From: Eubacteriales bacterium
Lineage (GTDB): Bacteria > Bacillota > Clostridia > Oscillospirales > CAG-272
Assembly: GCA_045540115.1 (NCBI GenBank)
Contig: JAZQGR010000041.1
Span: 36,638 to 100,637 of the forward strand
Direction of reading: 5' to 3'
Length of the DNA: 64,000 nt
The translations under genes and the position numbers were made by a program. The notes below the pieces were generated by a model. It saw only the letters and a list, made by a program, of their open reading frames with translations. It was not told the DNA's origin and ran no database searches. This document shows positions 32,751 through 53,125 of the stretch, piece by piece (the first letter of the stretch is position 1; every line of letters begins with the position of its first letter).

Positions 32751-33095
32751 CCGCTTTTTTCCGCTTCGCCCATGACTCCGGGTAGCTCTGAGTCAAATGA
32801 AGTTCAAGTCCTGCCCCACCGAAGGTGGAACCCAAAGACCCCCGATTGGGTTGTTTGACTCCTGACCTTACTCGGCAGTCGCATAGTCGCCGCGCGTCGC
32901 TCGCCTACTCGCTCCTTCGGCTCCTTGCTTTGTGCCGTCAACCGTTGCGAAAACGATTATCAATCGTTTTCGCTTAGATCGCAAGTTACTCGCCCGATGC
33001 TCCGCCAAAGGCGGAGGTCAGGAGGTTCAATCCCCTACCCTACGCCGAGGGCGCAACCAAAAGAGAAAAAACCACCCGACTGGGTGGTTTTTTCT
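32751..33095 (+). ncRNA. Candidate structured non-coding element (several nested hairpins) ending in an intrinsic terminator
   Basis: No credible ORF. Hairpins GAGTCAAA...TTTGACTC, CCACCGAAGGTGG, CCCAA...TTGGG, CTCCGCCAAAGGCGGAG. Terminator AAAAAACCACCCGACTGGGTGGTTTTTT at 33066-33095. Strand and function are unknown. Confidence 0.3.
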
Positions 33096-33169
33096 CTTTT
33101 GAGTAGAGGTGCCGAAAAAGATGCAGGACTTAAGTCCATTATCTTTCAAAACTAAAATATAAAAAACAT

Positions 33170-33345
33170 TTTCCCGAGGCAAAAGCTATCGAAATTATTC
33201 ATTATTCATTATTCATCCTTCATTCGAAAATCCGTTCCTTGCTTAATGAAGAATGAAAAATGAATGATGAATAGTGAAGAATACAAACGAAAATCCGTCC
33301 ACTTGCGTGAACGGATTTTCGTTTGGGATGCGGGCCCCAAAAAGA
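33170..33345. repeat. Heptamer (ATTCATT) tandem repeats forming a long imperfect hairpin, plus a perfect 14-bp-stem hairpin
   Basis: ATTCATTATTCATTATTCATCCTTCATT...AATGAAGAATGAAAAATGAATGATGAATAGTGAAG and AAACGAAAATCCGT...ACGGATTTTCGTTT, at the transition into the AT-rich island. Confidence 0.5.
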
Positions 33346-33515
33346 TACAACTGCAAATCAAATGTAAAACGACTAATCGTAAGCAAATACAAGGATTTTA
33401 GTCATCAAGGAATGCTTTTTTATTTTTCTCAGTATTGTTATACTATCTTTTCTGTCCGTTTCGCCGGTGCCAAAAAAGATATATTAGCTCTCTTTATATG
33501 GAGTTCGTAATTTTT

Positions 33516-33845
33516 CTGTATAATGTCTGTATCGTTCAGTTCAAGACTGCAAAAAACATATTGCTGAATACATGAAATTTTATAACGAAAAGCGACCTCA
33601 CCGCGCTAACAATTATAAAACGCCCAATCAAGCCAGAGGAGCTTTTCTGCCAAAGAAAAATGAACCACAGTGTATAAATCACACGGTTCAAAAGTCATTA
33701 CTGTTTTTGGGTTTGCAACCCATTTTTTGATTTTTTGTAAAAAGAATCTTCAATATACAAAAACGCAAAAATCCTGTATTTATCGATAAAAATTGGAGTC
33801 AGTCTCTCGCAGTCCAACAAAACCGTTCAGAACTTGACTCCTATT
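33516..33845 (+). mobile_element. IS3-family (rve/DDE) transposase C-terminal fragment plus right-end repeat (remnant A)
   Basis: Translation gives ...IAEYMKFYNEKRPHRANNYKTPNQ (the YNxxRxH...TPxQ motif of integrase-core transposases). Followed by an ~200-nt region homologous to 42540-42760 and 41320-41602, ending GAACTTGACTCCTATTCAA. Confidence 0.6.
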
Positions 33846-33929
33846 CAACGCAAAATATAGAATTTAACGAATAATAATCATTTGTTTTATATTTAAAGAA
33901 TATTTTATAATAAAACACACAAAAATAAA

Positions 33930-34175
33930 ATGGAATCGCAATTGAATGCGATTCCAAAAGGAGATATTGATTTGTATAAAAAAGGATACACAGCAGAACA
34001 GGAGTATATTGCATGCATAAATTATATATACGATAGTGAACCTGTTACATTCGAACAATTGTGGAGATTTATATCTTTATTTGAACTGACAAAATCTCAA
34101 AAAATAAATCTCATTAACGAAATATTAGATTCTACACTTGTCCTATGTAAAAACTGGACATTTTTTATGCGATAG
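33930..34175 (+). CDS. Hypothetical 81-aa protein (uncertain)
   Basis: ORF in an AT-rich region with a weak RBS; its 3' end overlaps the convergent 69-aa ORF. Confidence 0.25.
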   Translation: MESQLNAIPKGDIDLYKKGYTAEQEYIACINYIYDSEPVTFEQLWRFISLFELTKSQKINLINEILDSTLVLCKNWTFFMR

Positions 34176-34374
34176 CAAATGCTGACTGATAATAAACAGA
34201 CAAATCATCATTAACATCTGAGTACTCCACCAAACCCATGTTAAGAAGTTCGTCAAGAACATTTAAAATTGCTTCTTTATCTGTTATACCTTCTAATGCC
34301 AATTTATTAAATAAATCTGACATCAAAAACGGTTTTTCCATTTCTAAAATGGTTTTTTGAATTATCAAATCCAT
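34165..34374 (-). CDS. Hypothetical 69-aa protein downstream of the HD-domain gene
   Basis: Good GGAGGAATTAAAGT RBS; same strand as, and 77 nt downstream of, the HD gene. Confidence 0.45.
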   Translation of the reverse strand: MDLIIQKTILEMEKPFLMSDLFNKLALEGITDKEAILNVLDELLNMGLVEYSDVNDDLSVYYQSAFAIA

Positions 34375-34450
34375 ACTTTAATTCCTCCGTTAATTTTTGA
34401 TTATAACCGAGCCTCAACATTGTACCACATTATTTCACAAATGTCAATAA

Positions 34451-36451
34451 TTATTGATTAATTTTTTGCTCAATCTTAATCTTCTTTAGTTCTTCAATAA
34501 ATATCCTAAGAACTATGTTTTCAAGTTCTTCAAATTTTGGCTTTTGCGTTAAATCTTTTGAATTCAATGGCAAAAAATAAAGATGGAATGGAACATATGA
34601 TGCTTTTTGCTGATTCAACAATTCGTCACAAATCGACACCATTTCTACACTACGAGCCTTTTCGTCTTTATCCCAAAGATAAAGTGGAGAACCTATATTA
34701 TAGCATCCCAAAGAGAACTCACATGGTCTTATGATGCAATGTAATATATTGAGTTTTTTTCCTTCTTCAGTAGCTAAATAGTCATTTATTTGTTGTTCAA
34801 CACTTTGATAGAAAAAGCTTCTTTTATTTTTGCCGACACTGATAAAGGAGTTCGTCACTGTGTTAAACACGTACCCTGCATTGTAGCGTTTTTGATCTTT
34901 GATTTTTGCGGAAATGCGATCATACATACTTTTCATAGTGCTATTTTTAAAACACGCACTCTCATTCAACCACATTGTTTTAAAAGAACTATCAAAATTA
35001 ATAAAGTCAACATTTCGTTTGAAATAGGAATAATAGTGTTTTTTGGTCGAAATCAGTTCATCAAACATGTTCCACATATGATCACTAGAATTGTTGTTTT
35101 TATCTCTATAATGCTCTTGATATTTTTCAAAAAACGACACTTTTAAAAGAGTATCCATCCAGCTATCGTCAAGTTGAATAATTAAATAATCTATTAATCG
35201 ATTGTTCTTAGAAAGATAATCCACCAAGCACCAAATACTGTAAAGCTTCAGGGGTAATGGTTGTCCATTTTTTATGGTTGGAATATCCTCGTCATCCTTA
35301 ACTGATTTTAGTTCCTCAAAACCTATAAATGATAAAACCTCGGAAAATAAAATTTCATGCTTGTGAACTCGGTGATGAAAATTAATTTGGCTAAATATTT
35401 TCCATCTGCGTTCCAGAAGATCTTCAACGTCGGTTACATTTTTCAAGGCGGGGCAAAATAAAATTCTCTCCCTTATAGGTGATTGCTCCGGATTGTTTTG
35501 AATATCTGCAGGCAATTTTTGCGATATGATTTTAAAATTATTAAATAGCCTTTGATAGGAAATGATATCCTTTCGCGTCCCTGCGCAAAACGCATCTCTT
35601 GAACAATAGTCTAACCTATCAGAATCAAGTATGCCAGATACAATTCGATGCAGATCACTAAATAAATTGTTTTCCGAGGGAGTCGAAGTTAATATTTTGC
35701 CCACAAAGAAAAGCGTTGCAAGAACAAAAATGTTGTCTTGGGTTATGTTATTTGATAATTCTTCCGACAACTCAAGCTTAATTTGTTTCAACAATGCATT
35801 GCCTATTTCTTCATGCAACTCATTTTGACCTTCACAGTAAGGCTTCAATATTTTAATAAAATGCTTTTGAGCCTTGTTGGGATTCGGAATATCATTAACC
35901 TTGGAATATAATGATTTTGTAGCATGTTCAAATACATGACTATAAGGTAAATGCCCTGCATCATGTAACAAACCAGCAATTCTAATAGATTGAAATAAAA
36001 CGAAGTATGCAAAACTTTGTTCAGCCTTAATGTTTTGTGGAAAATGCGTACGATAAATTGCGCAATCCGGGACTTTAACACTTAAAACATTGTCATCGAA
36101 TTTATCCACAATATCATTACTTAGCATTTTTTCAGAAGAAACATCTATGTTTTTAAACCAGTTTTGGAGTTCTGCTTCTGCTTCTGATAATAAACGTGTA
36201 ATATTATATAAATTTGTTGTGTTGACCACGCTATTATAAAAAATTTCTCCTGATAAATACATAGTTCCAATACTATGTTCAAATCTTTTAACTTTATTTG
36301 AAGAGTATGTTAAATAAACCAATGAACTTTGTAAAATACGGTGCAAACGATTGAAGATAGGGGTGCTTATTATTGCACCTTCCAATCCACTATATGATAT
36401 TGTGTTGTGAATAATATCACTAATTTGTTGGGTTCTTTCCAATTGTATCAT
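34451..36451 (-). CDS. HD-domain phosphohydrolase (dNTP triphosphohydrolase/SAMHD1-like N-terminus) with a long C-terminal extension
   Basis: HD motifs RFEHSIGTMYLS and GLLHDAGHLPYSHVFEH. 666 aa, very AT-rich codon usage. Confidence 0.65.
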   Translation of the reverse strand: MIQLERTQQISDIIHNTISYSGLEGAIISTPIFNRLHRILQSSLVYLTYSSNKVKRFEHSIGTMYLSGEIFYNSVVNTTNLYNITRLLSEAEAELQNWFKNIDVSSEKMLSNDIVDKFDDNVLSVKVPDCAIYRTHFPQNIKAEQSFAYFVLFQSIRIAGLLHDAGHLPYSHVFEHATKSLYSKVNDIPNPNKAQKHFIKILKPYCEGQNELHEEIGNALLKQIKLELSEELSNNITQDNIFVLATLFFVGKILTSTPSENNLFSDLHRIVSGILDSDRLDYCSRDAFCAGTRKDIISYQRLFNNFKIISQKLPADIQNNPEQSPIRERILFCPALKNVTDVEDLLERRWKIFSQINFHHRVHKHEILFSEVLSFIGFEELKSVKDDEDIPTIKNGQPLPLKLYSIWCLVDYLSKNNRLIDYLIIQLDDSWMDTLLKVSFFEKYQEHYRDKNNNSSDHMWNMFDELISTKKHYYSYFKRNVDFINFDSSFKTMWLNESACFKNSTMKSMYDRISAKIKDQKRYNAGYVFNTVTNSFISVGKNKRSFFYQSVEQQINDYLATEEGKKLNILHCIIRPCEFSLGCYNIGSPLYLWDKDEKARSVEMVSICDELLNQQKASYVPFHLYFLPLNSKDLTQKPKFEELENIVLRIFIEELKKIKIEQKINQ

Positions 36452-36502
36452 GTTATAATGCCCCCTATCAGTAGTAAGAATATTATGCCATATGTTTGAA
36501 GT

Positions 36503-37005
36503 TTGTCAAGTTTTGTAAATTATTAATATCAACTGTATATAAGACACTGCGTGGCCGTTTTCATAATATAATTTTCAAAAGGAGGATTATATCATGAAAT
36601 CTAAATTCACTTATGAAGAAAAACGAGCGATCTTGGCTCTTTACATATCAAATTTCGAGTCTTGCACAAGCATTATTTGGGATGTTAGCATTTCTCAAAG
36701 CACCTTTTACACTTGGCGTTCTGCTTATCGTAAAGAACATGAAGAAGTCAACGTAAGGTGTTAAGCTTACGCAATTCAGATTTGCTTGAAGCAAAGGCGA
36801 GGCGTTTGGAAAGTATTATTGAAATCATCAGAAAAGCCAACGCAATCCCCCAGTGCTCCTCTAAAGCAAAAGCTCTATGTAGCCGAAAAGTTACCGGTTA
36901 ATATAGCGTTCATATGATTATGCTATTGCCTTGAACATTGCTCGTAGAACGTATCAGAATCATTTTCTGCGAAACGAACGATATAATGCGGGACTTGACT
37001 CCTAT
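36503..37005 (+). pseudogene. Degenerate IS3-family element left part (IRL-like end, frameshifted orfA, start of orfB), truncated
   Basis: Hand translation gives MKSKFTYEEKRAILALY...ISQSTFYTWRSAYRKEHEE (orfA HTH), then stop; LLEAKARRLESIIEIIRKA (leucine-zipper region), then stop; then NIARRTYQNHF (orfB N-terminal motif). Ends at the ACTTGACTCCTATT 15-mer. Confidence 0.55.
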
Positions 37006-37009
37006 TTAA

Positions 37010-37807
37010 TTATATATTGTTTACCAAAAAGTCAAAGCAATTATATTCTATCATTTTATGAAAGTTTTGTTGTATTTTTGTTATAAATTCAAACGCTTTT
37101 AAGTCAATATTATACGGATAAAGGGCACTCTTATATAACACAGTATTACGATCATTGGTGTCTAAATATGTTATACGATTAACGGGCGAAAACTTAGTGT
37201 AAAAAAACTCTACGCAGTTGATTTTTTCATAATTGCTTGAAAAAAATGGATAAAAAACATATCGATCGAAGCAGAAATAAGAACAATGTAGTACACGATT
37301 ATTTTTTAGTACATCTTTGATTACATTATAACCATTGGGGCGCAAATGAATATTGTTATTAATTCTCTGAATTTGTAAATCTGATTTATTGATGGCAACG
37401 ACATCATCGGAAATAAATGTGAAGGAATTATTAACTAAATAACAAGTTAATGTTGATTTCCCCCTAGATGTCGGAGACAAAAAAACATATGCCTTATCCT
37501 TTTTTTGAACAGCAGAAGCATGAAACAAAAAATAATCAGGTATCATTATTGAACTTTCATATATGTATTTATTCAAATAATCGACCGGGTCCCTGACAGT
37601 TAGCTCCAAACCATCAACACACACTTTTGATTGAAAACCGTTCAGAACATCAATATGGATATTGTGTGTTGCCTGCGCAACATTTGTTGCATACTCTCCA
37701 TAGGCAATTTCTAACCATTCGTACAAGTGTCTGCTGTTTGTTGTAATACTATATGATGTTGTATGAAATGGTTTTTGGATGGTTAATTTCATTATAATCA
37801 CTTCCAT
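37010..37807 (-). CDS. HPr-kinase-like P-loop protein (HprK C-terminal-domain family), RiPP cluster 1
   Basis: Walker A SPTSRGKSTLT. Comparable in size and motif to the HprK-like kinases at 47096 and 61671. Confidence 0.65.
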   Translation of the reverse strand: MEVIIMKLTIQKPFHTTSYSITTNSRHLYEWLEIAYGEYATNVAQATHNIHIDVLNGFQSKVCVDGLELTVRDPVDYLNKYIYESSIMIPDYFLFHASAVQKKDKAYVFLSPTSRGKSTLTCYLVNNSFTFISDDVVAINKSDLQIQRINNNIHLRPNGYNVIKDVLKNNRVLHCSYFCFDRYVFYPFFSSNYEKINCVEFFYTKFSPVNRITYLDTNDRNTVLYKSALYPYNIDLKAFEFITKIQQNFHKMIEYNCFDFLVNNI

Positions 37808-39348
37808 ACAGATTTGATTTGATCATAGGTAAGGCCGTAACGCTTGGCAATATCTTGAGCATAGCTCTTACCGTCGCTCTTTTCGCGATACACCTTATAG
37901 GTTCGCCTATCGTGATAAATTCCAACTTTCAGATAATCAATAACAGAACGCGAATTTGCTTGCGCATTATACCTTTCCGTTACTTCAACCACCTCGTGAA
38001 GATGAGTTGAAAAGATGCCACGGCATCCTATATCCGTTACACCGCGAATGAAATCGCAAGCTATATATGTTGCTTCATAGGCATTCGTTGATGAAAGCGT
38101 TTCATCCAAAAGTAACATACTATGGGGAGAAAGCTTTTCTACGATTGCCGACAATCTATGACATTCTTCTTCGAGACGACCCATACCATTTCCGCTTTCG
38201 CCGACACTTTTCGGAAAATGGGTATATAAGCCGAGAACCGGACTTATTGAAGCGCTCTCGGCAGGAACCAACCATCCTAATTGAGCAAACACTTGTATGA
38301 TACCAACGCATCGTAAGAAAACAGATTTACCCCCTTGATTAGGTCCGGTCAAAATATAGAATTGTCCTTTTTCATCAAAAGAAAAGTCGTTCTTTACGAT
38401 TTTAGCAGCACCAACCTGCAGTGCAGTGACCGGATTGTAAGCATTTTTTACCGAAAAAACTTTTTCACCCGTTGGGTGAATTATCGGCTTACAAAGAGGC
38501 AGTCGAAGCTCTGTCAAGAAGCGGTGAATTTTTACGCTTTCTGTAAGGAAAATCAAAACGGGTAATGCTTCCAGCAGTTCTTTACACGAATTAGAAAGAA
38601 ATGCGTCAACCGTTGGCTGCCACTGTGATAGGTTCTTTTTAAACCATTTATTAAGTGCCGTATAGATTGTATCATTCATTAAAGATGACTCATGACGATT
38701 CAAAACTTTCGGTGTCGTAAGAGGAGCCATAGAATGAAGGGCGTTAGCATCTTGAACCGATAACAAGCGCTCAATAAGCGTTTTGCTGACGATCGGCGTT
38801 GTGTTGATGGACAGAATCCCGCCGTCTTTGAGTGACAGGTCTTCATTGAAGTTGAACCCAAGAGAAATACTTCTAATTGAGCCGATCTTTTTCAGAAGCT
38901 CTTTAGTTCCCTCTCTGAGCTTCCGATACTCATCTGATTCAGCCATCTGCACAACTTCAGAATAAAAAGCTCTGATAGAATCCGAGGTTGCATTATTAAA
39001 GTGTTCGCTGTTCTGCGTGATCGTGTCAATGCAATGAAAATATATTTCTAGCTGTTTTACAGAATACAGATGTGTCTCTGCAGCATAATGCGCTTCCCGT
39101 ATATTGACCATGTTTTTAATATACCGCAAATCATCAATAACCGAAAGAAGGACAGCATGTAGCTCAGGAATCGATACAAGGTCATTAATGACATGATTGC
39201 GTTCGCGAATTACTACCTCATCTGTAGAAATATACTCAACCAGGTTTAAATCCTTGGAGTACAAGAGATTATTTAATCCCAGATCTGATATCAGTTCGCC
39301 GGCATGATCGAAAGATTCGTCACATTTTTTGATAATAGAATCAAACAT
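37798..39348 (-). CDS. MutS-family ATPase (MutS2-like: core/clamp plus domain V, no mismatch-binding domain)
   Basis: ILTGPNQGGKSVFLRCVG (Walker A), LLLDETLSSTNAYEA (Walker B), STHLHE (MutS ABC signature). Confidence 0.7.
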   Translation of the reverse strand: MFDSIIKKCDESFDHAGELISDLGLNNLLYSKDLNLVEYISTDEVVIRERNHVINDLVSIPELHAVLLSVIDDLRYIKNMVNIREAHYAAETHLYSVKQLEIYFHCIDTITQNSEHFNNATSDSIRAFYSEVVQMAESDEYRKLREGTKELLKKIGSIRSISLGFNFNEDLSLKDGGILSINTTPIVSKTLIERLLSVQDANALHSMAPLTTPKVLNRHESSLMNDTIYTALNKWFKKNLSQWQPTVDAFLSNSCKELLEALPVLIFLTESVKIHRFLTELRLPLCKPIIHPTGEKVFSVKNAYNPVTALQVGAAKIVKNDFSFDEKGQFYILTGPNQGGKSVFLRCVGIIQVFAQLGWLVPAESASISPVLGLYTHFPKSVGESGNGMGRLEEECHRLSAIVEKLSPHSMLLLDETLSSTNAYEATYIACDFIRGVTDIGCRGIFSTHLHEVVEVTERYNAQANSRSVIDYLKVGIYHDRRTYKVYREKSDGKSYAQDIAKRYGLTYDQIKSVWK

Positions 39349-39379
39349 AAATCTACTTTCTTACATTAACGACAACATT

Positions 39380-39670
39380 TTATTGCCGTGAAATCAAGAT
39401 GTTATTATCAACCATCTCATTAATACACATTTTCATGTCTTGACAGATTTCCTCCAATTCATCGGGGTTCTCTGTATCAAATTCAAAGTAATTTCTCATA
39501 AAGGAGAGCAATTCAATGTCATAAGAGCACTCTTTAAAATAATCGAAAATCCTTGATGATGTTTTGTTTAGAATAATGACTTTTTCATGCTTTTCCAAAA
39601 AAACGATATACTCATCTTCCACATTTTCAATTGAGAGTTCATTATTAACCATCAAATGCTTATATTTCAT
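39380..39670 (-). CDS. PqqD-like RiPP recognition element (RRE) protein
   Basis: MKYKHLMVNNELSIENVEDEYIVFLEKHEKVIILNKTSSRIFDYF...LEEICQDMKMCINEMVDNNIL has a PqqD-like pattern. Start taken at MKYKH, 28 nt after the rSAM stop. Confidence 0.55.
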   Translation of the reverse strand: MKYKHLMVNNELSIENVEDEYIVFLEKHEKVIILNKTSSRIFDYFKECSYDIELLSFMRNYFEFDTENPDELEEICQDMKMCINEMVDNNILISRQ

Positions 39671-39698
39671 ATGTATTCCTTTCATTGATTCTTTTTTC

Positions 39699-41003
39699 CT
39701 ATTGTTCTGCAATTTCATAAACAAGGTATTCTGGGCTCTCTTTAACAAGCTTTAAGTATTTGTTATTATATTTTGTGTCGTTAATCAATTTTTCATAGTA
39801 CTGCTTCCAATACAGTCGCTTACATTCACATTGTTGGGCAAACATTTGCGGTGCTTCTTTGGCTCTTAACGGGCATCCACCTCCGCAGTGAATAAATGCA
39901 ATGCAGTTTTTGCATATCTGGTAATAGTCAGAATAATGTTGAGACGAAATGTTATCACATACATCGAAAAACTCTAACTGCTCGTTCTGTATATTACCCA
40001 AGACAATATTAGAATTATGATCATCTAAACAGTTCAATATTCGACCGCTTGCATCAAGCCAGGGGTTATTGCCATACGCCGCCCCACAATTATCACAACT
40101 TATGAACTGCTTAAAATATGACGATCTAAAATTTATAGGCAACTTGTGTAAATAAACATGTTCTTCCAATCTTACATATTCTTTTACAAAGTTATTATAC
40201 GAACTAGCATGCTTTTTCGCCCTTCCCTCGGGCATTACTGGCTCGATATCCCAAGAGCGAAGATTGGGGAACTCCGTGCTTATATAGTTTGCCATTTTTG
40301 TGAGCAATCCATAATCATCCGGCCAAATTGTTGTTCTAATTGAAAAGTTGAATTTTATTGAGTCCAAATATTTGAGTGTTTTATATACAAATTCATGGGT
40401 ATCATAACAACTTGAACTGCAACGATTTTTATTTTGTGTTTCGGGATTTCCATCATATGATACCATTATGGAATCAAAGTTCGATTCTAAAAATACGACT
40501 TGATTTGTATTCAAAACCCCGTTAGTGGTTATTCCTAAAAAAACAGGAATTCCATGTCGAGCAAAAACTTCTCGAATATATTCTACCGATTCAGTAAGTA
40601 ACGCCCAATTATAGGTCGGCTCTCCCCCTCCCGCAAAATATATTTTGGGAGTATTATAGAGTAAATGCATCTTTTTTCTGATTATTGCATTTTTCACGAA
40701 CCAGTTAACAAATGTTTTCACTTGGGAGAAAGACAATTCGTCTCCTTGCGTTTTGGAGTCAAATGAACAATAATTACAGGAAAGATTGCACCTATTTGTT
40801 AGGCTGATTCCAACTGATAAAGGCATTTTCAGTTTAATGTTATAGGGATCATTATTGTAGGTAATATGGCCAAAGTGAGCTGAGCAATTCTTTGGATCAC
40901 ATTCAACTTTTATTGGGATTAGAGAGGTGACATCAGTTTTTTTTACATATACTCTGTTGTTCAAACCATCAATCAAAACTTTGGCATCGGAATAAGGCAA
41001 CAT
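39699..41003 (-). CDS. Radical SAM / SPASM-domain peptide maturase
   Basis: CxxxCxxC (LTNRCNLSCNYCSF), glycine-rich FAGGGEPT, C-terminal SPASM Cys cluster (CDNCGAAYG...CKNCIAFIHCGGGCPLRA). GGAGG RBS. Confidence 0.8.
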   Translation of the reverse strand: MLPYSDAKVLIDGLNNRVYVKKTDVTSLIPIKVECDPKNCSAHFGHITYNNDPYNIKLKMPLSVGISLTNRCNLSCNYCSFDSKTQGDELSFSQVKTFVNWFVKNAIIRKKMHLLYNTPKIYFAGGGEPTYNWALLTESVEYIREVFARHGIPVFLGITTNGVLNTNQVVFLESNFDSIMVSYDGNPETQNKNRCSSSCYDTHEFVYKTLKYLDSIKFNFSIRTTIWPDDYGLLTKMANYISTEFPNLRSWDIEPVMPEGRAKKHASSYNNFVKEYVRLEEHVYLHKLPINFRSSYFKQFISCDNCGAAYGNNPWLDASGRILNCLDDHNSNIVLGNIQNEQLEFFDVCDNISSQHYSDYYQICKNCIAFIHCGGGCPLRAKEAPQMFAQQCECKRLYWKQYYEKLINDTKYNNKYLKLVKESPEYLVYEIAEQ

Positions 41004-41048
41004 ATAATCCTCCTTTTTACTATTACAGTTAGCATGCGCTAATATAAA

Positions 41049-41231
41049 TTAGATGTTTTGAGCTACATTAGCAACGCAACCGGCCGCCGGTCCGCTCATA
41101 CATACTCCTCCCGAGGTGCATCCCGGGAATTCGAGTGAGCGACAGTCGCCAGATCGCGCTAGTGCCTTGATATCGTTAAGCGCCTTTGAATCAATAACGG
41201 TTATTTGATGCTTTTCATATTTTGTTTTCAT
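41049..41231 (-). CDS. Cys-rich RiPP precursor peptide 1 (60 aa)
   Basis: MKTKYEKHQITVIDSKALNDIKALARSGDCRSLEFPGCTSGGVCMSGPAAGCVANVAQNI. GGAGGAATATT RBS. Four Cys in the C-terminal core; directly upstream of the rSAM gene. Confidence 0.65.
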   Translation of the reverse strand: MKTKYEKHQITVIDSKALNDIKALARSGDCRSLEFPGCTSGGVCMSGPAAGCVANVAQNI

Positions 41232-41319
41232 AATATTCCTCCATTTTGCGCACGCTAACTGTATTTAGCACAAACACTGTCTATTCACTTTGATAATACC
41301 ACTTAATTGAATAAATGTC

Positions 41320-41602
41320 AATATTAACTTGTAAAATCCCCGAAATTATTTTGTTTTTCGATTTATTTCGAATTAAGTTTATTGAATTTGATGAAATATG
41401 CGAAAGAACGATTTCCTAAAACGGTTATTAAAAATCAAAATCTCCAATGGAAGATCCGCGTCTATCATTGGAGACTATTATGTAGTAGCGATAATCCAAT
41501 CCGAAAACTAAAGAATGCCGACGTTTCAGTGAATGGGGACCAACGAAATAGTCAATATTTACAAAAAAATAAGTCAAGCCTCAAAGTCTGTTTAGAACTT
41601 GA
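41320..41602 (+). repeat. Third copy of the IS3-family right-end region (no transposase body), ending TAGAACTTGACTCCTATTCAA
   Basis: Homology to 33620-33845 and 42540-42760 (for example GTTTTTCGATTTATTTCGAATT versus GGTTTTTCGTTTGGAACTCGATTTTTGAATT). The terminal 22 nt are nearly identical to remnant A. Confidence 0.45.
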
Positions 41603-42760
41603 CTCCTATTCAAAAGATGAAGAAATAAATTACAAAAAGCGATATGAAATACTAAAAAATACCAAGCCTTCCTCAAGGCACAACGAGAGAAAAAGTAATA
41701 TTTATCAATATGCACATCGAAGAATACTCACTCGACAATATGTGTGAGGTGTTAGATATTTCGAAGAGAACGTATTACAAGTATCGTGCAGCAGAAGATA
41801 AAGACTACTACGACTACCTTTTGATCAAAGAAATGTTTGATGAATCAAAAGGCACGTACGGTTATAGTAGGATTTGTGATGGCTTATTGGTTAAATATGG
41901 TGTAATATTTAACCACAAAAAGACAGCAAGAATCATGAAAAAGTATGGTTTAAAGCCGGAGTATATTAAACGCATCAGACCAAACTACTCAGCTAAAAGG
42001 CAAGAAGAAAACGTTAAACCGAATTTGCTCAAAAAGAACTTTAATGTTAGTGAACCCAATCGGGTGTGGGTTACAGATATTACGTATCTGATCTTTGGCA
42101 ACAAACGAGCTTATCTATCTACTATTCTTGACCTTTATGATAGAAAAATCGTTGCGTATCAGATCTCGAAACGCAACGACATTAAATTAGTTATTGATAC
42201 ATTGAATCAAGCTATTGCTAAAACGAAGGATGCATCAAGCCTTATCATTCACAGTGATCAAGGCTTTCAATATACATCCTTCGAGTACAAAGCCGTATGC
42301 GAATCTAATGGGATACAAATTTCCATGAGTCGAAAAGGCACTCCGATCGACGATTCCCCCATTGAGAGTTTCCATAGCATACTGAAAAAAGAAACTTTGT
42401 ATAACAATTATATCACATCTTTCGATGAATATCTACTGCTTGTTGAGGATTGTTTGAATTTCATAATACTTCAAAAGCAAAAAACAGGAAGAGATGAGTT
42501 CTCTTCCTGCCTTTGTCGTGGTTTTCTATTCTTGTGAACTAAATAGGGTTCACTTCACTTTTCTACCAAAGAAAAAAACCGTAGTGTCTAAATCGCGCGG
42601 CTCAAAAGTCGTTACTGGTTTTTCGTTTGGAACTCGATTTTTGAATTTTTACAAAAACGATTTTAAATGGGCGAAAATATAAAAAGCCTGAATGTATCGA
42701 TAAGAAATAGCAGTCATTTTCTCACAGTCCAATAAAGCTGTTGAGAGCTTTGCCCATATT
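41603..42760 (+). mobile_element. IS3-family element right part: orfA C-terminal fragment, orfB (integrase core, 41710..42537, C-terminus degenerate) and IRR
   Basis: orfB has the DDE/rve core (VWVTDITYL...HSDQGFQYTS...). The region upstream is in a different frame with stops, so it is frameshifted and probably a pseudogene. The 3' region is homologous to remnant A. Confidence 0.65.
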
Positions 42761-43062
42761 CGATATCCGTGATATCACGATACAAAAAATATAATTTTTT
42801 TCGTATAAATTTGATGAATTTTCAAATAATATCATTTTATATATTGAAAAAATGCAAAATGTGTGATATAATAAAATAAAAAAGTGAAAAAACACAAAAA
42901 TTATGAAGATATTTAACGGAAGATTATTGCGACGAAGCGTTAGATTGTACAATTTTTAAGCAATCGAATTGGTAGTTAGAAATATAATTATTGAATTTGT
43001 ATTAATTTTGAATCATTTGTCAAGCTGTTATTTAGTGAAAATACGTTTATGGGAGAATTATT

Positions 43063-44856
43063 ATGAAATCAGTAATAAAAGCCAATAAAGAAAATTTAAA
43101 ATACCTTTTTCGACATTTCTGGCCGCTTATTATTGTAGAATTGTTGTTTGCAATTACAAGTGGAGTTTCAGGAGCGATATCTTCATTCATGTCAAAAACA
43201 TTTATAAATAGTATAATTAATGACAAAAGCTTAAAAGTTGCAATGAATGTTGTTGTTGCGGTTGCGATTTTTGTGCTATTTAAAAATATAATTCAAAGTA
43301 TTGTTAAAGTTTATTCAAACTATGTGTTTTCTAAAGTAAGAGTGTTTTCAAAAACTATTTTTTTAGGATATACGAAACAACTAAATTTATCTTTTTTTGA
43401 TATACCAGAAAACAATAATTGTTTGTCACGTGCAGACCAATATTCCAATGTTGGCACAGAACAATTTATTTCATATGTTTTTTCAGTATTCGCCAATATA
43501 ATCGGGTGTATAAGTATATTGTTGATAATGTCCGATTTTGAGTGGTGGATTGTGTTTTTTTTACTGGTGTTGATGTCTTATAAATTAATAATTGAAAATT
43601 TTCTTTCAAAAAGAAATTTTAAATTTAAAAAGGAACGAGTTATACGCGAGCGACGGATCGGTTATTTTTCAAATTCATTCAAGAGTGCTTCGATATTAAC
43701 AGATTTGCATATATACGATGGCATTGATTTTTTTAAGCATCTATTTGAAAAACATTCGGAGGAAAATATCAATTTACAGACCAAACACAATTTTAAAACT
43801 GAATTGTTGTTTGCTTCAACCTACTTAACTGTTTTTATACAGAATATTGTTTTGTACTTGTATGTAGGTACTGCATTGCTGAATGGGTCCATAAATATTG
43901 GAGAATTTACGATGTTTTTTTCTGCTATCGGCTATTTAAATGCGTTACTGCTTAATTTTAAAAATTCCATATCAACACTATATCCAATTATCTTGGAATC
44001 TCAAAATTATTTAGATCTGATCAACATCGATTCAAAATATAAATATAATATACAAAAGTCGGGTCGAGTAAAGGTTGATAACATTAAGACAATCGAATTT
44101 AAACATATCTATTTTAGGTATCCGAAAAGGACTAACTTTGTTCTGAGCGACGTATCGTTTACTATAAATATGGGGGAGACAATATCTCTTGTAGGGATAA
44201 ATGGATGCGGCAAAACAACAATAATTAAATTATTGCTTAGGTTATATGAACCTACGGACGGACAAATCCTAATTAATGGTATCTCAATAGAAGAAATTGA
44301 TATCGAGAATTATTGGAAATTATGTAGCACTGTTTTTCAAGATTATTGTATTTATCCGATATCTGCATTTGAAAATATATCTTTGAATTGTGTTACCAAA
44401 AGCAACGCTGAATATGTCGCGGATTTAATGAAAAAAGTAGATATTGCGTATAGGTTTGATAAAGAACAAATGGGCATTTTCACTCCTCTTTCAAGAGATT
44501 TTGATGAAAATGGTACGGTTCTTTCAGGCGGCGAAAAACAAAAAATTGCTTTTGCAAGAGCAAGTTATAAGCCTCATTCTATACTGATATTAGACGAGCC
44601 GTCCAGTGCTTTGGATGCGCGAGCAGAGCAGGCATTATTTGATTATGTTGATTGTACTAAAAGCCACAATAAAATTGTAATTTTTGTTTCACACAGACTA
44701 TCAACATCAACCACTGCAGATAAAATTATATATATTGAGAATGGATGTGTATCCTGTTGTGGTTCCCATGACTACATGATGAACAATTGTAGTTCATATA
44801 AAGAGCTGTTTGAAATTCAATCTTCTAAATACGAGCAAACAAGTGTAAATAAATGA
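43063..44856 (+). CDS. ABC exporter, fused permease and ATPase (no C39 peptidase domain), RiPP cluster 2
   Basis: Six TM helices, then Walker A GINGCGKTT, signature LSGGEKQKIAFARA, Walker B ILILDEPSSALD. Confidence 0.8.
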   Translation: MKSVIKANKENLKYLFRHFWPLIIVELLFAITSGVSGAISSFMSKTFINSIINDKSLKVAMNVVVAVAIFVLFKNIIQSIVKVYSNYVFSKVRVFSKTIFLGYTKQLNLSFFDIPENNNCLSRADQYSNVGTEQFISYVFSVFANIIGCISILLIMSDFEWWIVFFLLVLMSYKLIIENFLSKRNFKFKKERVIRERRIGYFSNSFKSASILTDLHIYDGIDFFKHLFEKHSEENINLQTKHNFKTELLFASTYLTVFIQNIVLYLYVGTALLNGSINIGEFTMFFSAIGYLNALLLNFKNSISTLYPIILESQNYLDLINIDSKYKYNIQKSGRVKVDNIKTIEFKHIYFRYPKRTNFVLSDVSFTINMGETISLVGINGCGKTTIIKLLLRLYEPTDGQILINGISIEEIDIENYWKLCSTVFQDYCIYPISAFENISLNCVTKSNAEYVADLMKKVDIAYRFDKEQMGIFTPLSRDFDENGTVLSGGEKQKIAFARASYKPHSILILDEPSSALDARAEQALFDYVDCTKSHNKIVIFVSHRLSTSTTADKIIYIENGCVSCCGSHDYMMNNCSSYKELFEIQSSKYEQTSVNK

Positions 44857-45947
44857 TCTATGATACTATGAGGTGTAACATGTACGAAACAATTACTGCA
44901 AAGACTGTGTTAATAGAAATAACTAATACGTGCAATATGAGATGTACACATTGCTATAATAGATTCGATAGAGAATTACATCCCAAGCCATGCTATATGA
45001 CTTTGGAAAATGTAAAGCATATTATCGAAAAATGTATTTTATATAAATTAAATAAATTGTATATTTCTGGGGGTGAACCATTGTGTCATCCGGATATAAC
45101 TAGAATTATTGATTTGTGTGGTAATTATCCAGATATATATTTTACAATTACTACCAATGGGCTATTGCTTACCGAAGAAATCATCAATCAAATAGAACAA
45201 CATACCAATATATGTGTTCAAATCAGTGTCGATGGATTGTCTAAAGAAGTATATGAAGCGCAAAGGGGAATAGGTACATTTGAAAAATTTATATCTGTAT
45301 TGGATCTACTAATTTCCTCTAAAATCAAATATTTAACCGCACGAACTTGTGTAACAAAGCTAAATTACCGGGAAGTAAAATACATATATGAATTTTTGCT
45401 GAATCATAATATTATGCCTTCTTTTTTATTCGTAAATCAAATGGGAAATGCAGCCGAAAACTGGGATATATTATCCCTAAGTATGGCAAATCAGTTAAAA
45501 GTTCTTAATGATATCAATGTATTAAACAAAAAATATTCACAAACTATTACTCCGCCGGAACCAGTATCAACTTGCAATTTTACTGAAAATGTTGAAGTTA
45601 AATCTATGTTGATTAAATATGACGGAAATGTAGCCCCGTGTCAATATTTTTATTCAGAAAACATAGGTAATATTTTTGAAAAGGATGTTTCTGAAATACT
45701 TAATTATGAAAATTTAAAAAGCTATTATGAGTTAGCAAGATACAGAAAAGAGGTTCTTGAGTCAAGCAACACGTGTTCTAATTGTAGAATAAAAAGGATT
45801 TGTTCATATGGTTGCATAGGGCTTGCAAAAATTTGTGGGGATACTTTGGGAATGGATGGTCAGTGTTCTTATCGAACACACGTTGTGTCAATGTATTCGA
45901 ACGGAATAATTCCTATGCCGGGCAAAGATGTGGAGGATTTATTGTAA
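44853..45947 (+). CDS. Radical SAM / SPASM-domain peptide maturase
   Basis: ITNTCNMRCTHCYN (CxxxCxxC), ISGGEPL, C-terminal CSNCRIKRICSYGCIGLAKICGDTLGMDGQC. ATGA overlap with the ABC gene stop. Confidence 0.8.
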   Translation: MIYDTMRCNMYETITAKTVLIEITNTCNMRCTHCYNRFDRELHPKPCYMTLENVKHIIEKCILYKLNKLYISGGEPLCHPDITRIIDLCGNYPDIYFTITTNGLLLTEEIINQIEQHTNICVQISVDGLSKEVYEAQRGIGTFEKFISVLDLLISSKIKYLTARTCVTKLNYREVKYIYEFLLNHNIMPSFLFVNQMGNAAENWDILSLSMANQLKVLNDINVLNKKYSQTITPPEPVSTCNFTENVEVKSMLIKYDGNVAPCQYFYSENIGNIFEKDVSEILNYENLKSYYELARYRKEVLESSNTCSNCRIKRICSYGCIGLAKICGDTLGMDGQCSYRTHVVSMYSNGIIPMPGKDVEDLL

Positions 45948-46504
45948 TGAAAAAAATTTTTGCAAAATTCAAACAAGTAACGATCGCATGTGCAATATCT
46001 ATGATTATATATGTGTTAACTTATTGGATAACATCCGCTTTTATGAATGCGACATCCAAGCCGATGTATTTGCTTGCGTTAGGAATTTATTCGCTTATGT
46101 TCATGTGTGTATTAAATTTGATTTTGATTTATCGTGAATATATCAAAAACTCTGCTGGCGAAGAAAATGCAATACAAGATTTCAAAAATGGATATTGGGG
46201 ATTCAAAACAGATATAATCTTTTTATTTAGACGTGAATTATCCACTCTTATTACATTTGCATTAATAAATAGCACAAGTTGGATAATGATATCGATAGAT
46301 AAACTGATTTTTTCGAAAAGAACTATAACTGCGATTCTTTTGTTATATGCGCCGTTAAATATTGTAGGTATCACTTTGCCTACATGGGCTAATAGTATAT
46401 TGGGATATTTATTGGGAACCATTTTGTGTTTTGCGATATATCTTTTGGAGCTTGTGATCTTTCGCAAAAAATGGTATATACATTGGAATGAGACAAGGAG
46501 GTAA
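45948..46504 (+). CDS. Polytopic membrane protein (candidate immunity or export accessory)
   Basis: Start at MKKIFAKF; 4-5 TM helices; immediately precedes the precursor gene. Confidence 0.5.
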
Positions 46505-46506
46505 AA

Positions 46507-46767
46507 ATGTTTTATAAACCAAAATTGATAGAAATCTCTATTGAAGAACTTATCAACCATATTCGTATTAAAGCTGATTCTTATACTGGTCCGTCTTGTA
46601 CATGGTCATATGTTGAGGAATACGCATGTGGCGTTTGGGCCGATGGTAGTGATGGTGCCGGGGGCGGAGATTGGGGAAATATGTGTATTGAAATCGGTCC
46701 TTTATTTGGTTGCAATGAACATGAGGATTGGTATTGTAGCACACAAATAACGCCTATCGTTAGATAA
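46507..46767 (+). CDS. Cys-containing RiPP precursor peptide 2 (86 aa)
   Basis: Perfect AGGAGG RBS. Leader-like N-terminus (MFYKPKLIEISIEELINHIRIKADSY), then a core with five Cys and a Gly-rich stretch (GSDGAGGGDWGN). Confidence 0.55.
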   Translation: MFYKPKLIEISIEELINHIRIKADSYTGPSCTWSYVEEYACGVWADGSDGAGGGDWGNMCIEIGPLFGCNEHEDWYCSTQITPIVR

Positions 46768-46839
46768 AAAATTATTACAAGCTCCCTCGAATTAGATTTT
46801 AAAATTATAAGTTGGGTTACTTTAAGCAAGGAGAAATTC

Positions 46840-47103
46840 ATGAAATATATAATAAATCAAGACTTCGATAAGATAGATGATGAGAATAAGACTATTTTGT
46901 TCACAGGTACTGTTGAAAATGTGTACATACTAAACGAAATAGAGACACAGATTTGGAAATTGTTTGATCGCCCCTGCTTTATCACTGAAGCACATGAAAA
47001 GTTTGATACAGTTACTAGTCAAGTAAAGGTTAAGAAAGAAGATTTTTTTGATTTTGTTGAGCAATTAATTATTATGAGGATCTTAATTTTATCTAATGAT
47101 TAG
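46840..47103 (+). CDS. PqqD-like RRE protein
   Basis: ILNEIETQIWKLFDRPCFITEAHEKFD...EDFFDFVEQLI. AAGGAGAAATTC RBS. Confidence 0.55.
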   Translation: MKYIINQDFDKIDDENKTILFTGTVENVYILNEIETQIWKLFDRPCFITEAHEKFDTVTSQVKVKKEDFFDFVEQLIIMRILILSND

Positions 47104-47893
47104 GATATCTTTCCAATTCTCTAATTGTTCCTTTATTGTGGATTCTCCAGCTATTATTGAATCACATATATTTGAAAAGTTTCTTTTGTTTGCTGAATTT
47201 ATAAAAGCAATTGACCATGAAAGTCAAAGTATAGTGATTTGCGTAAACGAAAATGATATAAACATTTATAACAATAAAACAAGAAGAAATCACATCATTA
47301 GATGTGATTCTCATTACGATGTATTTAAAAAGATTATTAATTTGATACGCGAGAATACGATAGTCAACGGTGATGTTTGTGTATTACATGCGTCTTTTAT
47401 AAAAATGTTTAATAACGGTATTCTATTATTAGGGGAGAGTGGTGCTGGCAAGTCGACTTTATCAGCATATCTTCATCTGATGACAGGATGTGAATGTTAT
47501 ACAGATGATATAGCATTTATGAATTATAATACGAAGGTAACTCAAGGCGTGTCGCAATATATTAATTTGAGGTCGTCTTCACTGGATTTGTTACCCGCAA
47601 ACCATAATGCGGTTTATGATGATTTTATTGAACGATATAAAATCATCATAAACAATCGTTCTAAAGAAAAGGTGGATTATATCGTTATGTTGAATCGGCA
47701 AAACGATTCAGAGGTTGGAATAAAACCAATTGAAAACCCTATAAAAGTGTTGACACAAAATATGTATTTACCATATTCATTAAAGAATAATATTATTGCT
47801 GCCAATAAATTAGCAGCTCAAAGCAACGTATATGAAATGTGTTATTCAGATTTGTTTTCTGCATATAATCTTTTGAGCGAATTAGAAGGTTGA
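47096..47893 (+). CDS. HPr-kinase-like P-loop protein
   Basis: LLLGESGAGKSTLSAYL Walker A; overlaps the PqqD gene stop. Confidence 0.65.
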   Translation: MIRISFQFSNCSFIVDSPAIIESHIFEKFLLFAEFIKAIDHESQSIVICVNENDINIYNNKTRRNHIIRCDSHYDVFKKIINLIRENTIVNGDVCVLHASFIKMFNNGILLLGESGAGKSTLSAYLHLMTGCECYTDDIAFMNYNTKVTQGVSQYINLRSSSLDLLPANHNAVYDDFIERYKIIINNRSKEKVDYIVMLNRQNDSEVGIKPIENPIKVLTQNMYLPYSLKNNIIAANKLAAQSNVYEMCYSDLFSAYNLLSELEG

Positions 47894-48390
47894 TGCACAT
47901 GTTATTTTTATGGATGCTCTTGTTGATTATTATTGTATTTTAAAAATACCTTTATTTGATTATTAAGAGATTTCATCTTCTAAGAAAAATAGGTAAACTA
48001 ATCTTGAATTCTGCGCCAAAATCAATCAGCAAAGCAGATGACGCAACACTTACAGCGCTCTATAACAACGACGATTTAATTCCCGTTGTCAAAGTGTGTG
48101 GATTAAAATGGTTTGTTGAAAATGTTTTTGAGCAAGAGGAGAGATAAGATTGGTAATGAAATACATAAGGTAAATGTTAAATGCCCACAAGCAGAAAATT
48201 ATTTGCAAAATCTTCTTTTCTTTGTGCAGATCAAGGAATATAAGCTATTGATCAAATAAATGTTTTTATGACAAAAGAAAAAAAGAGTTATTGCGGTGTT
48301 GTGAATAACAACTCTTTTTACGCAACAAAACAATGTTTACAAATTGAATTAAAGTGGTAACTACGCTCTTTGTAATTCCACATATTTCCT

Positions 48391-48644
48391 CCTTAACCAT
48401 TGCGGAAAGGAGGTAATATTATGATAAAAACGCAACATTTTGGTTGAATGGTGCTGGAACACACAGCGAGGCTTTGGACTTAAGAATCGAAAAATCTGCT
48501 GAGCTTTGTGGAATGAGTTACAAAGGACTGGAAAAGATCAAGCTTTGCGATTCAAATCTAAAGTTGTCGAGTGTTTTGAATATTTCGGATGCTCTTGGTG
48601 TCAATCTTGAAGAACTCAATGCTTGTATTCCTGTTTTTAAGTAA
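48391..48644 (+). CDS. XRE-family HTH regulator, apparently frameshifted or TTG-initiated, with an RBS-sequestering hairpin
   Basis: LRIEKSAELCGMSYKGLEKIKLCDSNLKLSSVLNISDALGVNLEEL is a full HTH_3 domain. The AAGGAGG RBS (48411-17) serves the ATG at 48421, which opens an 8-codon frame (MIKTQHFG*) that is +1 relative to the HTH frame. CCTCCTT at 48391-97 can pair with the RBS. Confidence 0.4.
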
Positions 48645-48898
48645 ACGACTGTGGAACGGAGTCCTTAAGAAAGGGGGAGCTTCAAATAGAACACAAGTAC
48701 ATAGTTGTTTCGAGTGCGTACAAGAACTGAGATATCACAATAATTGGTTTCGAAATCATCGCTGTAGAAGAATATGACGGAGTTCCCACTTTTTAAATTC
48801 ATATCAAATCGTTCTTCGAACATCTAACTGTTTGAACGCTTATTTAAGTGATTTGATGATCGTTTAATACAAGACGTTTTTTCTTCTTCACAGATGGT

Positions 48899-50545: not shown

Positions 50546-51413
50546 GGCCGTATTCTCCTTCCTCTACATCGGTTTCTGTCTTAGTATGTAGCGTAACTTT
50601 TCCTGAACTGTCAAGGCTTACGTAGGCAATGAGATCCGAGAAGTATTCGCTGTTAAACGTGCTTTGAGGTTCCATTAGCATCGCTCTTTTCCTTGCGATT
50701 TGAGCGACAATCATTTGCTTGGCTTGAGTTTCCTTATAGAGCTGTGTTGCAATGTCTCCTGTGCGGGCAACTACATATTCCTCGCTCGGTCGCTCTCTGC
50801 TCAGTTCAGTAAGGATATCCGCTTGATACTTTTCTACTGTTGGGGAGTCTTGAAATTTGAGCTTAGGCTTGGGTAGCATAAATTCTGAATTTGCTATGAT
50901 CCGATTCATAATGATCGTTATCTTTTGAATCAGATCCGTGTCGCTGATTCGAGTTCTTCTTCCACATTCGTCGTTGGTGCAAATCCAGCTTTCTTTGATT
51001 CGATTCTTCGAGCATATGCGTCTGACCATCTGCGAACCGCAGGTTGCGCATTTTACTCGATTACGGAGAAGATTGAGTGCTTCGCATTCACGCTCTACAA
51101 CTCCGCGTTGTCTTGCAATCTTTGCGTTTACCGCTTCTTCATATGTCTCTTCATCGATTATCGGATCGTAATCATCAAATCCTGTGTATTTGGCATTGTC
51201 GATGATTCTTGCTATTCTCGCTTTATCCCACACAGATTTTTTCTCCGTATATGGTATACACCTTGCTGTCAGATCTTCAGCAATCTCTTTGAGCGAAGAT
51301 CCGTTGATGTAGTCATTAAAAATCTGTCTTATTACATCAGCTTCTGTGTGTTCGATTACAGTCCGTCCGTCTCGAATGGTGTATCCATATGGAATAAAGC
51401 GAGTCTTTTTCAT
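50535..51413 (-). CDS. Recombinase-domain protein lacking the resolvase catalytic domain (zinc-ribbon plus recombinase domain only)
   Basis: The 292-aa product has no S-nucleophile resolvase N-domain but has a recombinase-domain-like region and a Cys4 ribbon (CATCGSQMVRRIC...CTNDECG). Confidence 0.6.
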   Translation of the reverse strand: MKKTRFIPYGYTIRDGRTVIEHTEADVIRQIFNDYINGSSLKEIAEDLTARCIPYTEKKSVWDKARIARIIDNAKYTGFDDYDPIIDEETYEEAVNAKIARQRGVVERECEALNLLRNRVKCATCGSQMVRRICSKNRIKESWICTNDECGRRTRISDTDLIQKITIIMNRIIANSEFMLPKPKLKFQDSPTVEKYQADILTELSRERPSEEYVVARTGDIATQLYKETQAKQMIVAQIARKRAMLMEPQSTFNSEYFSDLIAYVSLDSSGKVTLHTKTETDVEEGEYGLEC

Positions 51414-51422
51414 TTTCTTCTC

Positions 51423-52967: not shown

Positions 52968-53125
52968 GAGTACTCCTTTCGTTAGCATAGTGATCGGTCA
53001 ATACAAATACTCTTTGATTTGACCTTATTCCAACACAATTATATTGAAGAAGCGTTGGAAGTCCAGCGAGAATCGCCATCAATTTCGATGTTTTTGAAAA
53101 ATTTCAAATACAGACATAACTTGCT

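Follow-up and report, generated by a model that had tools for sequence, protein, structure and literature searches.

The question raised by this locus is why one short sequence recurs, letter for letter, on both sides of a small peptide gene cluster. In the 64-kb stretch of Eubacteriales bacterium DNA analysed here (the window), a cluster named after ribosomally synthesised and post-translationally modified peptides (RiPP cluster 1, hereafter cluster 1) lies between remnants of insertion sequences (IS) of the IS3 family. A sequence-only reading had taken the repeat at the edges of these remnants as the trace of a recombination between IS ends. Our comparison with intact relatives in other genomes explains the repeat as the terminus of an IS, and corrects the annotation of the window by mapping to the base three degenerate IS3 lineages, called here X-type, B-type and IS-D. 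The region is probably an eroded nest of these lineages in a low-GC island, produced by nested insertion followed by deletions.

First, the repeat itself was examined. It is 14 letters long (ACTTGACTCCTATT), not 15, and an exact-match count gave three copies in the window, all on the + strand, at 33832-33845, 36993-37006 and 41597-41610 instead of at the starts 33828, 36991 and 41586 reported earlier. That the repetition is real was confirmed: the chance expectation is 0.02 and three matches were reached in none of 100 shuffles. Between the first and the third copy the match widens to 24 nt with one mismatch (33825-33848 and 41590-41613), with 20 nt in common as an exact stretch (33829-33848 and 41594-41613). 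The 19-nt form AGAACTTGACTCCTATTCA is perfect at 33829 and 41594 and has three mismatches at 36990; the copy at 36993 retains the 14 nt and the final A only (GGGACTTGACTCCTATTTA compared with AGAACTTGACTCCTATTCA). A fourth copy of the terminus, degenerate, ends at 42762 (GAGAGCTTTGCCCATATTCG). A self-comparison of 32.5-43.5 kb gave three relevant repeat families, namely a ~205-nt repeat (33642-33846 and 42558-42761, 76% identity), a 57-nt terminal stretch and the 24-nt tip.

One genome per species (185,579 genomes) was then scanned with AACTTGACTCCTATTCA, which returned 19 matches, 4 of them real; a metagenome set gave one real match out of two, and the four matches in a viral collection were all due to chance. 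A complete X-type element of ~1.47 kb was present at locus L008, in a metagenome-assembled genome of Candidatus Flemingiibacterium. It contains a single open reading frame (ORF) of 390 aa, whose product scores 301 bits on the NCBIfam model NF033516 (IS3 family transposase, cut-off 160), and it ends in ...CTGTTCAGAACTTGACTCCTATTCA. The same terminal 25 nt were found in the intact relatives P0142, P0145 and P0146, which had been fetched via the transposase and not via the motif (73-85% aa identity to the query, the N-terminal 185 residues). The P0155 lineage, 63% identical, has the terminus AGAAGTTGACTCCCATTCA. Since intact relatives from unrelated genomes terminate in sequence that contains the 14-mer, the latter is, on this comparison, the outer part of the right inverted repeat (IRR) of the X-type element. 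The sequence-only reading was therefore right that the repeat marks an IS edge at each copy and that it is not a target-site duplication, because it belongs to the element and is present at the ends of intact copies in unrelated genomes; a true terminus without the repeat, which would have refuted that reading, is not what the intact relatives show. The repeat does not, on the other hand, stand as a signature of recombination or of a breakpoint: as the IRR tip that the transposase would recognise, the 14-mer is put at a junction by every insertion of an X-type IS.

IS3-family elements have imperfect terminal inverted repeats ending in 5'-CA-3' (PMC6211511). In five intact loci and in the window pieces A and C, the X-type right end terminates in ...TATTCA; the other two tips of the window depart from this consensus, with TA at the stub ending at 37008 and CG at the tail ending at 42762. 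From family knowledge and from the structure described below, the 14-mer would be the tip bound by the transposase, with cleavage after ...TATTCA-3'. The IRR that bears it contains an outward-facing TTGACT. In IS911 and IS2, an outward -35 element in the IRR pairs with a -10 element in the left inverted repeat (IRL) to give the junction promoter of the circle, and the left-terminal string of X-type and B-type elements offers TATTAT at a distance suiting TTGACT. In the window, the IRR of remnant A and its flank make up a promoter-like site at 33834-33863; such sites are not enriched in the region (47 versus 44.9 in shuffles).

The left tip of the X-type element is placed only provisionally: the string AAGAATATTATAC / AATTATAAC that its relatives have in common and a subterminal TGA(T/A)TTTGTCAA bear only a loose likeness to the IRR. 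Judged with this provisional tip, the flanks of L008, L036 and L040 are without a clear duplication of the 3-4 bp kind made by the family. The orfA/orfB layout with a -1 frameshift is absent from X-type and B-type relatives, which encode one ORF of 380-390 aa and still pass the family model.

The features of the locus, together with the tRNA genes adjoining the relatives in other genomes, are collected in Table 1.

Table 1. Features of the IS-rich region and tRNA genes next to intact relatives. Positions are those of the window unless a locus (L) is named.
Feature	Position	Strand or orientation	Description
Remnant A	33530..33847	+	Last 318 nt of X-type element; 75.5% nt identity to L008 1152-1469
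B-type left part	36476..36992	+	Pfam HTH_Tnp_1; left ~515 nt; exact left tip uncertain by a few nt
X-type IRR stub	36993..37008	+	16 nt: exact 14-mer plus TA, terminal CA now TA
Cluster 1 (RiPP cluster 1)	37010..41231	-	Not part of any IS
HprK-related kinase-like protein	37010-37807	-	Cluster 1, last gene
MutS-domain ATPase	37798-39348	-	Cluster 1, MutS_V
122-aa protein	39380-39748	-	Cluster 1
Radical SAM/SPASM-type maturase	39699-41003	-	Cluster 1, Radical_SAM
60-aa Cys-rich candidate precursor	41049-41231	-	Cluster 1
Piece C	41563..41612	+	50-nt solo X-type terminal hairpin module; BLAST match L008 1407-1469
IS-D	41613..42557	+	Third IS3 lineage, orfA/orfB layout; 89-91% nt identity to L022-L026
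X-type tail	42558..42762	+	Last 205 nt of older copy; 76% nt identity to 33642-33846, 75% to L008 1262-1467
tRNA-Met	L008 5785-5863	convergent	2 nt from X-type right tip
tRNA-Met	L040 3823-3902	convergent	2 nt from right tip
tRNA-Gln	L036 3823-3899	convergent	2 nt from right tip
tRNA-Gln	L030 3823-3899	convergent	2 nt from B-type right tip
tRNA 3' half	L041 2823-2880; also L039, L042-44	convergent	2 nt from right tip

Four X-type right ends, all in one orientation, were located in the window (33847, 37008, 41612 and 42762). No X-type left end was found anywhere in it, and a tblastn-type search of the window found no further IS3-like coding sequence. IS3-family sequence exists at all four places where the sequence-only reading had put it. 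The view of that reading that the fragments come from one element does not hold, since three lineages are involved and the identity between remnant A and the tail at 42558-42762 is no more than 76%. This distance is like that to copies from other genomes (74-78%), so the two are not recent duplicates. Remnant A consists of the last ~35 transposase codons (33530-33634), the 3' untranslated part, the terminal hairpin and an intact IRR tip (...AGAACTTGACTCCTATTCA). Its C-terminus is 74% identical in aa to the L008 transposase (tblastn), and 65-74% identical to X-type transposases versus 46-48% to those of the B-type. In the tail, the IRR is degenerate (GTTGAGAGCTTTGCCCATATTCG), the hairpin has been lost and no stable fold is predicted. 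A left end belonging to remnant A had been suspected by eye near 33393-33455; it was rejected, as the local alignment gave a z-score of about 0 and the nhmmer left-end profile was non-significant.

The stub at 36993, which ends 1 nt short of the stop codon (37010-37012) that closes the last gene of cluster 1, is joined to a different lineage. The B-type remnant on its left comprises a left terminal region, a promoter and ~133 N-terminal transposase codons with at least three frameshifts. Over 36560-36990 it is 72-75% identical in nt to L027, L030 and L031, and the reconstructed protein is 63-66% identical to P0121-P0129 and 30-38% to X-type transposases. The remnant has the left-terminal string AAGAATATTAT(G/A)C in common with L008 and L039; the IRR of B-type relatives differs (...CAATGGTGT(A/T/G)TTCA). 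Homology to L027 ends at 36992, directly before the 14-mer. Because B-type relatives use another IRR, the tip at 36993 is foreign to the sequence on its left. For the same reason, 36476-37008 was rejected as one internally deleted element: L027, L030 and L031 have the other IRR and match the body at 65% identity, against 35% for the X-type.

Internally deleted derivatives of the B-type group exist elsewhere: at L031 (602-1192), a relative has lost an internal segment in frame, so that the first 117 residues of the transposase run directly into its last ~80 (196 aa). In addition, a near-consensus outward promoter-like site (TTGACA, 16 nt, TG-CATAAT) was noted on the - strand at 36482-36509, inside the B-type left end and ~30 nt upstream of the start of a gene for a 666-aa HD-domain protein (34451-36451). 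The B-type remnant may, to judge from this arrangement, supply the promoter of that gene.

On the right side of cluster 1, the orfB-containing part formerly drawn as one piece (41603..42760) resolves into IS-D and the X-type tail. IS-D belongs to the IS3 family by its transposase (256 bits on NF033516, cut-off 160) and by the features of its relatives, TG...CA inverted repeats and an orfA/orfB arrangement with a slippery A-run. Intact relatives are ~1245 bp long, with IRL TGAAGTGAACCCCAAATAGTTCACA and IRR TGTGAACTATTTGGGGTTCACTTCA; in L025 and L026 the ends read TGAAGTGAACCCC... and ...GGGGTTCACTTCA, and orfB lies in the -1 frame after an A7 run. The window copy has lost its first ~270 nt and kept its own right end (IRR TGTGAACTAAATAGGGTTCACTTCA at 42533-42557). 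Its A-run at the frameshift site is A6, not A7, and the C-terminus of orfB is altered; OrfB is 95% identical to P0001, and its matches carry the names Clostridia and Bacilli. As a side observation, the OrfB of L025 (353-652) and L026 (320-619) is identical (P0001), with OrfA only about two-thirds identical by eye. These two copies look like mosaics; the exchange point would lie near the A7 frameshift region and not far from where the window copy is truncated (41613).

X-type sequence starts immediately after the IS-D tip at 42557 and continues from the position equivalent to 33642. This direct continuation shows that IS-D was inserted into an X copy, 205 nt from the right end of the latter. 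At its other side, the interior of IS-D abuts piece C. Of the body-less right-end copy described earlier at 41320..41602, only 41563-41612 is detectably IS-derived; 41232-41562 had no IS match at DNA or protein level. In piece C the inner arm of the hairpin has decayed and the loop has an 11-nt deletion, and the 24-nt IRR, with its 14-mer, is intact. The CA tip at 41612 is joined straight to the interior of IS-D, where AAAGATGAAG... aligns with AAAGACGAAG... in L026, and this 41612/41613 junction is of the kind made by transposase. The possibility that 41300-41562 is a diverged left part of IS-D, with piece C a simple insertion, was rejected: no DNA alignment was obtained, and protein scores equalled those of shuffles. 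The inner junctions of piece A, piece C and the 16-nt stub are all internal to the X element and without recognisable signal, and would be deletion scars.

Taken in this way, the history of the locus would be as follows. X-type copies would have inserted repeatedly, beside the last gene of the cluster, into IS-D and at 33847, and IS-D itself into an older X copy. Three deletions would then have stripped the left parts and the adjoining IS sequence. One would run from about position 515 of the B-type element to 16 nt before an X tip. Another, starting upstream of the precursor gene, would have removed the old X left part, nucleotides 1-270 of IS-D and a newer X copy except for 50 nt, and a third would have truncated remnant A. 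The junctions at tips would be transposase-made and those internal to an element scars of illegitimate recombination, and cluster 1 would simply be the DNA lying between two X remnants. The frameshifts of the B-type ORF (at least three) and the weakened hairpins of the window are signs of such decay.

Several points speak against this history. The right tip survives in each of the four X pieces, a left end in none, and deletions with random end points would usually spare more than 16 or 50 nt of a ~1470-nt element. Nor would random deletion lead one to expect the solo modules of ~62 nt that were found, with one left boundary, in three other genomes. Furthermore, intact relatives adjoin tRNA genes and the window copies do not, and the order and number of events are a reconstruction. 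The bias for right tips may reflect erosion against selected neighbours, deletion at the base of the hairpin, or a real mechanism.

The right terminus folds as a ~60-nt hairpin with the IRR as its 3' arm and an inverted copy of it (AATAGGAGTCAA) as its 5' arm. Hairpin sites are 33786-33847 and 41563-41612 in the window, L008 5863-5924, L030 3763-3824 and L041 2763-2824. In three lineages with different sequences, intact hairpins reach -13 to -14 kcal/mol (z -4.5 to -7.4), and those of the window -6.4 and -5.5 kcal/mol or none. In the X-like set 91% of cells are paired, with one compensatory pair, too little variation to prove the structure, and in the P0155 lineage one pair is changed on both sides. 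The B-type hairpin, equally stable though of entirely different sequence, is better structural evidence than covariation. An A-run precedes the hairpin; read on the opposite strand, this gives a hairpin followed by a T-run, as in a terminator that faces inward. A simple terminator scan did not flag the X-type module.

Intact X-type and B-type relatives lie beside a convergent tRNA gene, with their right tip exactly 2 nt from its 3' end (Table 1). Relatives at 41-45% identity are not at tRNA ends, and a tRNA scan of the window gave no tRNA adjacent to its four X right ends. Solo modules beginning at the same IS position (~1407) were found at L003, L007 and L020, and piece C is closest to two of them (90% to L020, 88% to L007, versus 76-84% to IS-linked copies). 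These observations could be read as an undescribed single-ORF IS3 clade that inserts 2 nt 3' of tRNA genes in a fixed convergent orientation, whose hairpin and T-run could replace the tRNA terminator, the solo modules being kept as mobile units, terminators or insulators rather than as random debris. We regard this extended reading as tentative and rather unlikely. No description of tRNA-end targeting by IS3-family elements was found in the literature searched, which is absence of evidence only.

Beside truncated X right ends, a further motif of ~34 nt (...TTTGAGTAAGAGGTGCCGAAAAAGATAT, ending in GGTGCCGAAAAAGATAT) was observed shortly upstream in three genomes (the window, L003 and L006; alignment z 5.5-6.7). 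Its sites are 33090-33124, 33316-33348 and 33449-33482 in the window, near 344-377 in L003 (reverse complement) and about 6195-6228 in L006. It usually comes just after a terminator-like hairpin, and two of the window copies have no adjoining IS remnant.

The recurrent boundary of the solo modules would also fit a reading of the terminal ~50-76 nt as a mobile miniature element, made of an IRL-like inner arm and the IRR and moved in trans by the X-type transposase, piece C having inserted directly into IS-D. The greater closeness of piece C to L020 and L007 than to IS-linked copies agrees with it, as do the inner arm, an inverted copy of the IRR, and, further in, TGAATTTATCGAT, which resembles the left-end string TGATTTTGTCAAT. 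However, no target duplication surrounds any solo module, the inner arm begins with AAAATAGG and not with TG, and no IS-D sequence continues to the left of piece C. Moreover, the scans of 185,579 genomes and of the metagenome set found only four solo copies, and a miniature element that proliferates would leave far more. The intermediate of IS3-family transposition is a double-stranded circle, which is physically unfavourable below 100 bp. Piece C thus has the inverted-repeat architecture and the recurrent left boundary of a miniature inverted-repeat transposable element and has neither its duplications, nor a left TG, nor its copy number, which makes such an element improbable here.

Cluster 1 lies in a block of low GC content (0.28-0.35, from ~33.1 to 48.9 kb); upstream of it the values are 0.42-0.53, and over the ~8 kb that come after it they are 0.42-0.44. 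All the IS remnants and both radical SAM peptide clusters fall within this block (33100-48900), and two ORFs with large-serine-recombinase domains (48899-52988) mark its far end. The block looks like an integrated mobile element. Apart from Radical_SAM and MutS_V, the Pfam and NCBIfam matches of cluster 1 are below the family cut-offs. The only identical match of the maturase is P0139, from the source contig, and identity drops to 35-40% in the relatives that follow. Searches for exact copies of the maturase, the precursor and OrfB gave no match, and plasmid and viral collections contained only distant radical SAM proteins, nothing close to cluster 1.

Two observations on the surroundings may be added. 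The second cluster (43063-47893) has an ABC transporter, a radical SAM/SPASM enzyme and a 265-aa HPr-kinase-like P-loop protein, of the same kind as the product of the final gene of cluster 1. At the boundary between host and island, a GC-rich stretch (32780-33060) contains the tRNA T-arm-like strings GTTCAAGTCCTGCCC and GGAGGTTCAATCCCCT; Rfam and tRNA scans of this stretch and of the whole window gave nothing above threshold, tmRNA included.

Cluster 1 could have been captured or moved as IS-bounded cargo, either as an X-cluster-X composite or by an IS taking its flank along to a second IRR, with flanks eroded since. As the sequence-only reading had noted, the copies at 36993 and 41597 do flank the cluster as direct repeats, 4604 bp apart; the left X tip is 1 nt from the last stop codon and the right one ~330 nt upstream of the precursor gene. 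Location inside the low-GC island also fits this explanation, and a different radical SAM gene (434-457 aa) has an intact X-type element ~1.1 kb upstream of it in L036-L038 (2501-6117), which may be a coincidence. Nevertheless, the cargo of a composite transposon is bounded by outward-facing ends, one left and one right, and cluster 1 has a right end on either side, the two pointing the same way. The left one adjoins the interior of a B-type IS, whose relatives have another IRR; the present structure is therefore not a composite transposon. The right tip, for its part, is joined to the interior of IS-D, whose matching left half was not found left of 36476. With no X-type left end in the window, no definable flanking duplication and no relative of the maturase above 40% identity, hence no second insertion site for comparison, capture between IS ends is not supported and we consider it very unlikely. 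Since the low-GC island ends at serine recombinase genes, acquisition with an integrative element is the more economical route for cluster 1. An assembly artefact, in which contigs were falsely joined via the common IS terminus and IS bodies collapsed, is scarcely credible: repeated IS ends are classic places for misjoins and the source appears to be a draft contig, but the exact stretches in common (14 and 20 nt) would be below usual assembly k-mers, and the inner-side sequences of the copies differ, each decayed as in old separate copies and not as in a collapsed repeat.

The preferred account of nested insertion and erosion can be set against known systems. Like IS911, IS2, IS3 and IS150, which move by copy-out-paste-in, the elements of the window belong to a family with a DDE transposase, an N-terminal helix-turn-helix and an rve core; intact right ends terminate in CA, as the imperfect inverted repeats of the family do, and the X-type IRR bears an outward TTGACT. 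The IS-D lineage adds the A7 run and the -1 orfB. X-type and B-type elements differ from the textbook members by their single 380-390-aa ORF, their ~60-nt hairpin terminus and the position of intact copies 2 nt from tRNA ends, and all window copies are incomplete, unlike full elements. Both lineages appear to be undescribed in the material searched. IS-D resembles the IS1447-like elements, a Firmicutes-enriched group of the IS3 family from similar hosts, in that a run of A marks the place where orfA meets orfB. IS1447 depends on transcriptional slippage at an A9 run for a +1 shift (PMC6211511), in contrast to the orfB of IS-D, which lies in the -1 frame after A7, and the likeness is one of description only.

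Composite transposons such as Tn9, with direct IS1 copies, and Tn10 likewise carry cargo between termini of the same IS, in direct orientation for the former. The present locus differs from them: it contains no complete IS, no outward left end, no duplication and no second unit, and its left copy is fused to another IS. The peptide cluster is therefore unsupported as transposon cargo, and the stretch finds its place in a low-GC island beside serine recombinase genes. The arrangement itself, nested, truncated and frameshifted IS in an acquired island, is ordinary and recalls the so-called IS graveyards, with IS in IS, truncated copies, frameshifted transposases and a low-GC acquired region. The oddity is that every X remnant keeps its right end.

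Finally, IS1397 and ISKpn1, which target repetitive extragenic palindromic (REP) sequences (cf. PMC1525189), offer a parallel for the fixed position and orientation of X-type and B-type relatives with respect to a structured sequence. The target is a REP palindrome for the former and the end of a tRNA gene here, a position that none of the window copies occupies. In Oscillospiraceae-type genomes, a small IS3 clade seems to sit exactly at tRNA gene ends, with a structured right terminus. If this is true and confirmed by a survey, a bacterial DDE example would join the tRNA targeting known from eukaryotic retrotransposons.

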